DNA of 64,000 nucleotides from Squalus acanthias. Its lineage: Eukaryota. The notes under the pieces were generated by a model. It was given only the letters and a program-made list of their open reading frames with translations. It was not told where the DNA came from and searched no databases. Positions 3,559 through 3,981 of this stretch are shown here, piece by piece. Both the position numbers and the translations under genes were made by a program. Each line of letters begins with the position of its first letter. The first letter of the stretch is position 1. Location of the stretch: assembly GCA_030390025.1 (NCBI GenBank), contig JASTWF010000138.1:558001-622000 (forward strand). The letters run 5' to 3'.

Positions 3559-3914
3559 CTAAACAACCGCGGGAACCGTCCGTGTCTGTCCTCCTGCCCC
3601 CGGCAGAAGAAGTCTCCGCTCAGAGGTTCGTAAGCCTCACCTGCTTAGTGAGAGGTTTCTCCCCCCGAGAGATCTTCGTCAAGTGGACCGTCAATGACAA
3701 GCCGGTGAATTCCGGCAACTACAAGAACACCGAGGTGATGGCGGAGAACGGCAGCAGTTCCTTCTTCATGTACAGCCTGTTATCCATTGCAGCGGTGGAG
3801 TGGGCCAGCGGCGCTTCTTACTCCTGTGTGGTGGGACATGAAGCGAACCCCTTCAAGATCATCAACAGAACGGTTAATAAATCCAGCGGTAAACCCAGTT
3901 TTGATGTTTTGTAA
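3559..3914 (+). CDS. IGHM: IgM CH4 exon with prematurely terminated secretory tailpiece (internal TM donor G|GTAAA at 3888/3889)
   Basis: Acceptor ttctgcAG|CT at 3558/3559. Translates to [43 protein letters not shown]...[38 protein letters not shown]. The rest of the tailpiece, TLVLMDNVNSCQ*, continues in frame to TGA 3951-3953. Confidence 0.93.
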
Positions 3915-3981
3915 ACCCTTGTTCTGATGGACAACGTCAATTCTTGTCAATGAGAATCTCTCGATTATATTTCAGTTCTTA

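Follow-up and report, generated by a model that had tools for sequence, protein, structure and literature searches.

A germline-joined IgM gene of Squalus acanthias with a truncated secretory tail

Sharks make both monomeric and pentameric IgM from one set of genes, by a choice that is still unsettled, and a natural allele that is both tail-less and pre-joined would offer a genetic route to the monomer. Does the gene described here represent such a route, or is it simply decaying? It lies in the window, by which we mean the whole 64,000-nt stretch of Squalus acanthias DNA that was analysed (C449, positions 558001-622000), and the first-pass annotation had read it as a mu gene giving a normal surface receptor and a tail-less secreted form, to be explained as a genetically fixed monomeric IgM, as a membrane-biased chain suited to its TCR neighbourhood or as a gene in early decay. 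That it belongs to a shark IgM cluster is borne out by four open C-mu exons homologous to shark mu, by matches of CH4 to mu structures at E values of about 1e-41 at best, and by a paralogous CH4, 96% identical to the window's, which is itself 84-90% identical to named shark IgM chains. The mu designation accordingly holds, and what lay out of sight of the annotation is the 5' part of the gene, some 10 kb before the window, where CH1 and CH2 are preceded by a split leader and by a VDJ joined in frame (Table 1). Its reservation that upstream exons might be disabled proved unfounded, as V, CH1 and CH2 are all open; indeed the gene is open through leader, VDJ, CH1-CH4, TM1 and TM2, with GT-AG ends throughout, and the 320 bases 5' of the ATG closely match those of V-family relatives, leaving the promoter region intact.

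Table 1. Features of the IgM gene and its surroundings, in window coordinates unless C449 is named
Feature	Position	Strand	Remarks
Leader, germline-joined VDJ, CH1, CH2	C449:547530-556297, upstream of window		all open, GT-AG ends
CH3 exon, IgM	1410..1718	+	open, N-terminal Cys kept
CH4 exon to internal donor	3559..3888	+	4 amino-acid changes vs paralog majority
Internal 5' splice donor G|GTAAACCC for CH4-TM1	3888..3896	+	identical to normal paralogs
Truncated secretory tail GKPSFDVL*	3888..3914	+	ends at equivalent of mu residue 564
12-nt replacement of 9 bases, holds TAA	3904..3915	+	pieces match flanks
Rest of tail, now untranslated (TLVLMDNVNSCQ + old TGA)	3915..3953	+	one further change T>N
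Two AATAAA signals, secretory form	3982..3997	+	retained
Minisatellite, unit ~52-53 nt, CH4-TM1 intron	4400..8870 (approximate ends)		read from sequence
TM1 exon	10400..10524	+	in frame, one codon shorter than paralogs
TM2 exon (VK*; tail KVK*)	10664..10672	+	AATAAA at 10734
Four TCR alpha/delta-type V exons	31350-31700, 33294-33656, 42895-43242, 51594-51920	-	one cassette

The CH4 exon departs from the paralog majority by D2Q, E79V, I96N and L98F, two of the four falling in a HEAxPxK loop that may be read as the FG loop contacting neighbouring subunits in mammalian pentamers. Its internal donor (G|GTAAAC at 3888/3889) is predicted from the genomic sequence to allow splicing to a TM1/TM2 ending in KVK, and the earlier statement that donor, TM1 and TM2 are intact is correct, all being in frame with AG/GT ends; TM1 has 125 nt rather than the 128 nt of 11 out of 11 paralogous TM1 exons seen, through the in-frame loss of one codon, and carries a few substitutions. 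The minisatellite in the CH4-TM1 intron spans about 4.5 kb in the window and is longer in a second copy of the gene on C559.

The stop in the secretory tail is genuine. The tail reads GKPSFDVL*, with a premature TAA at 3912-3914 and the former TGA at 3951-3953 in the CH4 reading frame, and alignment with paralogs places 12 bases at 3904-3915 where 9 normal ones would be. Only the repetitive nature of the locus speaks for a sequencing or assembly error, and we give such an error practically no chance: the exact lesion is found twice in the assembly, on C449 and on C559, in flanks that differ at 7 of 875 sites (0.8%), and a 110-nt short-read contig (3855-3964), present in both DNA runs of one sample, crosses the lesion with one letter different and no gap, which refutes a base-calling error. 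The stop noted in the first pass is thereby confirmed, also in a contig of short reads. The short-read contig differs from both assembly copies by its one letter and may stem from another haplotype or animal, and its depth, 1.8-1.9% of the shared CH4 depth, is compatible with one or two haploid copies.

As to its origin, the insert resembles its own flanks in that it holds an inverted AACAT and, at 3911, a second GTAAACCC. Templated repair is a known mechanism for inserts of this kind, and the likeness suggests a scar of flank-templated repair, by which nine tail bases would have been replaced by twelve; the support is modest, as 1,374 of 100,000 random 12-mers (1.4%) fit the flanks equally well. 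The second GTAAACCC was also considered as a cryptic donor but is judged minor, since the G at -1 is absent and TM1 would be out of frame. Furthermore, a role of the C-terminal FDVL as an ER-retrieval signal was set aside in view of the known motifs of that kind.

Aligned with rodent mu tails, the chain stops after position 564, positions 565-576 are absent, and the residues lost are N563, L566, position 568 and C575. The glycosylation site and the Cys named in the first-pass annotation are indeed gone, but they are not the whole of the loss, since most of the beta-strand of the tail is removed as well; a polymer-competent tail has N-x-S, a hydrophobic strand 564-568 and a penultimate Cys, a set that the truncated tail no longer offers. 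Across chimaera, skate and sharks the normal tail is conserved, also in the nurse shark gene IgM1gj. Passages of PMC11729874 and PMC8657937 describe the mammalian tailpieces as the core of a beta-sandwich in which V564, L566 and M568 contact the J chain, and report that J-chain binding is lost without C575, which is given in part of PMC11161108 as the substrate of thiol-mediated ER retention; the tail Cys is conserved in all three shark isotypes according to a passage of PMC8692893. By analogy the secreted product is predicted to be an H2L2 monomer that forms no polymer and binds no J chain, and the non-polymerising form proposed earlier is a sound prediction from the mammalian structures. With its stop in the last exon and both AATAAA signals kept, the secretory mRNA should not be subject to nonsense-mediated decay. 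The loss of most of the tail strand, of the N563 glycan site and of C575 would let the heavy chain, once paired with light chain, leave the ER as H2L2 with no J chain attached; if expressed, the gene would then yield both a surface receptor and a tail-less monomer. Engineered mammalian mu chains with C575A or C575S, as described in parts of PMC11729874 and PMC11161108, likewise lack the penultimate Cys, J-chain binding and thiol-mediated ER retention, whereas the present allele is natural, has lost positions 565-576 too, and has an effect in sharks that is predicted.

The VDJ is fully germline-joined and in frame, with no signals left between the segments, and since the junction is identical in three copies whose flanks diverge by 0.4-2%, the joining must be germline rather than somatic. 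Its sequence can be derived from D1, D2 and J of split relatives, in the order V-D1-D2-J and with a single untemplated base. The V is IgW-like, with 60% identity to a dogfish IgW V against 40-49% to the shark IgM Vs among the hits. A catshark protein reaches 79% identity; no protein with the window's VDJ was returned by two homolog searches (best 60% and 79%), which is weak evidence. Compared with the majority of seven split or partly joined relatives, the V shows 17 non-synonymous and 2 synonymous changes, the former including the framework changes P17S, P44S and T89I. The V family is common to seven clusters of the IgM array at C29:5.8-9.1 Mb, which are found in split, VD-D-J and VDD-J states, and for one of the seven the 28 kb fetched contain no C exon.

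Passages of PMC4279169 and PMC5192425 describe germline-joined clusters, IgM1gj and the origin of 7S and 19S IgM from shared loci, and also relate shark pentamer formation to J-chain expression. The window's gene shares with the germline-joined clusters of cartilaginous fish described there the minicluster with an in-frame VDJ, four C-mu exons, a secretory tail inside CH4 and two TM exons, and differs from them in its truncated tail and its IgW-like V. Nurse shark IgM1gj, reported in the same passages as monomer and dimer in neonates, likewise has a germline-joined VDJ, with a CDR3 of the same length that contains TGW-A-x-D, GSTGWALDY resembling the TVTGWAMDF of the window though the V families differ; the likeness is probably explained by shared D2 and J sequences, and convergence is possible. 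The window's gene is nevertheless not IgM1gj, since the latter has no CH2 but a full tail with its Cys, whereas here CH2 is present and open and the tail is lost. Nor do the V segments appear orthologous, their 49% identity (pairwise, not from a tree) being below the 60% to the IgW V. Shark 7S IgM is, like the predicted product, an H2L2 monomer without J chain, but by the partial accounts above it comes from the same full-tailed loci as 19S IgM, while the window's gene would itself rule out polymers. No tail-truncated shark IgM was found in the literature searched, the coverage of which excluded the primary papers on IgM1gj, dogfish Ig, switching and tailpiece mutants. The CDR3 (ARTVTGWAMDFW) and the DVL C-terminus are both unique and make a ready marker for the gene.

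Two further copies bear on the history of the lesion. The C559 copy (C559:15593-42000) has the same tail and in addition an 11-nt deletion in CH2, a 1-nt insertion in CH4 and a P>L change in V; its CH2 deletion makes it a frameshifted null and a pseudogene, whereas the window copy is open and has no lesion disabling all isoforms. C449 and C559 can be aligned for about 75 kb before they diverge, and may be alleles or duplicates. A sister gene at 8.94 Mb (C29:8939910-8956947) has the same joined VDJ and is open throughout, but its tail, GKPSFVDISRVLMDTVNSCQ, carries N563D and L566R, so that two of its four private replacements in CH3, CH4 and tail fall in the tail (p 0.036, post hoc). Sister and window are 0.39% apart in the 5' half, over 23.7 kb, and about 5% apart in the 3' half, which makes the window's gene a mosaic and means that the two tails were altered separately; in a poorly resolved tree of 40 CH4 regions the window does not fall with the 3' half of the sister. 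C449 as a plain haplotig of C29 was rejected, since other clusters differ by about 2.5-5%, and a derivation of the 3' half from the cluster at C29:8.46 Mb found no support, the nearest paralog, 3.4% away, being another copy.

A mosaic may of course also be made by assembly, in which case the lesion would be real but the open gene would be an artificial union of a 5' part of C29 type and a 3' part of C559 type. It would fit this that 5' of the J-CH1 intron C449 is 0.39% from C29 over those 23.7 kb and 1-2% from C559, and that from CH1 on it is closer to C559. The CH2 of the window is however that of neither copy, since it lacks the 11-nt deletion of C559 and differs from C29 at 4 sites, the CH2-CH3 intron has about 0.9 kb absent from both, and a real recombinant or a conversion explains the pattern equally well, and we therefore hold an assembly mosaic to be improbable.

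The CH4 region was searched for in the 3.7-Gb genome, and all 40 scored matches were fetched from 58 candidates; as up to 18 candidates were unscored, the tail counts are incomplete. Among these 40 tails, 34 are normal (GKPSFVNISLVLMDTVNSCQ*), 2 have the lesion, 1 reads VDISR, 2 are without stop and 1 has a G>S change. With two tails added later, and V paired to C by position, the 42 tails are altered in 5 of 9 fully joined clusters and in 3 of 5 without an IgM V (that is, with none in the 17-30 kb examined upstream), as against 0 of 27 with split or partly joined V; one at a contig start, of unclassified cluster type, is normal. Changes in the strand 561-569 occur in 4 of 8 fully joined lineages versus 0 of 33 others (p 0.0007, post hoc and on related sequences). 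For 8 of the 12 fully joined VDJ exons seen, the gene is disabled at another place or the stretch fetched holds no C region; the 4 open genes are the window's own, its sister and a pair whose tails are normal. The latter pair, at C29:7.66 Mb and C29:10.25 Mb, are germline-joined IgM genes with open exons and a V family of conventional type. Clusters at C29:8.459 Mb and C29:8.060 Mb have J and C exons with no IgM V found upstream, and have lost the tail stop (CQL...); three more V-less clusters lie on C29 at 7.92, 9.05 and 9.54 Mb.

We conclude that this is a fully germline-joined, open IgM gene with a cut tail, and on balance we favour, if by a modest preponderance, the reading that early decay has set in, under relaxed selection, in what is a spare copy of fixed specificity. 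Early decay was one of the three options of the first-pass annotation and is the best supported of them: tail changes are concentrated in non-standard clusters, of 12 joined VDJs 8 are dead, the second copy carries a frameshift, and the V shows far more non-synonymous than synonymous changes, which makes decay the likeliest reading. The lesion could persist because some 40 other clusters supply polymer-competent IgM. Against decay, no damage is seen in any other exon or splice site, in the promoter region or in the polyA signals, and the 57-nt tail, at about 3% of the coding length, is a small target for a first random hit. Furthermore, the sister with the same VDJ is open and has its own N563D and L566R, and the lesion also occurs in the short-read sample, in a contig one letter from both assembly copies.

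These same facts leave some room, though clearly less, for a functional and invariant monomer-only IgM, a pre-joined natural antibody of early life, comparable to nurse shark IgM1gj, in whose VDJ lineage polymerisation would have been lost twice, independently and through the gene itself. A complete open gene with an intact promoter region is in keeping with this notion, as is the separate change of the sister at L566, one of the three core residues named above as J-chain contacts in the mammalian passages; moreover, both altered-tail genes among the four open fully joined ones share the window's VDJ, the CDR3 is like that of IgM1gj, and early expression of germline-joined genes is mentioned in parts of the reviews PMC4279169 and PMC5192425. 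However, the C559 copy is a null, both remaining fully joined genes whose tails are damaged are plain pseudogenes, the tail of IgM1gj is normal, the CDR3 likeness follows from shared D2 and J, and the two homolog searches, weak as they are as evidence, gave no protein with this VDJ. Since shark 7S and 19S IgM share loci, no tail-less gene is needed for making monomers, and the proposal of a genetically fixed monomer is weakened by this and by the frameshifted copy, although the open gene leaves it standing; a hard-wired monomer keeps a share of the probability because the open sister has separate tail substitutions. Slightly more doubtful again is the specific idea of a fixed-specificity IgM lineage whose tail was disabled twice independently, by truncation and by N563D with L566R, to give an IgG-like, monomeric natural antibody through loss of the tail instead of through J-chain control.

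Substitution rates do not separate decay from function. Over CH1-CH4 the window shows 14 synonymous and 32 non-synonymous changes (omega 0.69, p 0.16 vs neutral), the sister has an omega of 0.71, and counts per exon are too small to use. Since omega equals that of the pooled paralogs (0.61 for CH3, 0.69 for CH4), decay faster than in paralogs is not supported. In the contig sets X7, X8 and X17, presumed to be RNA of unlabelled tissue and age and prone to drop rare variants, positions 3906-3913 are uncovered between flanks about 4,500-14,500 deep, and among the pieces listed for X5 and X6, likewise presumed RNA, none crosses the lesion, though the animals may not carry the allele. If expressed, the gene would parallel IgG in having lost the tailpiece, and would be a second type of invariant antibody of early life; otherwise it is a clear but ordinary case of birth and death among pre-joined IgM clusters.

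The remaining option of the first-pass annotation, a membrane-biased chain suited to its TCR surroundings (here taken to cover membrane-only and T-cell-related forms), has little to recommend it and appears quite unlikely. TM1 and TM2 are in frame, and four TCR-type V exons do lie in the window, 21-41 kb downstream of the IgM gene; but the donor and both AATAAA signals are the same as in secreting paralogs and give no preference to the membrane form, and the fully joined VDJ has no recombination signal left for TCR segments. One of these V exons, when searched, gave 11 genome matches, 6 of them among IgM clusters; the cassette is duplicated with IgM clusters, and those next to its other copies mostly have normal tails. 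TCR alpha/delta V exons between IgH clusters are in any case described as general for the elasmobranch antigen-receptor complex in part of PMC12227049, which explains the neighbourhood. At C29:8442856-8447000 an IgM J is preceded, at a distance of about 4 kb, by a TCR-type V of the same strand, which is followed by a 60-nt repeat that multiplies the heptamer CACAGTG.
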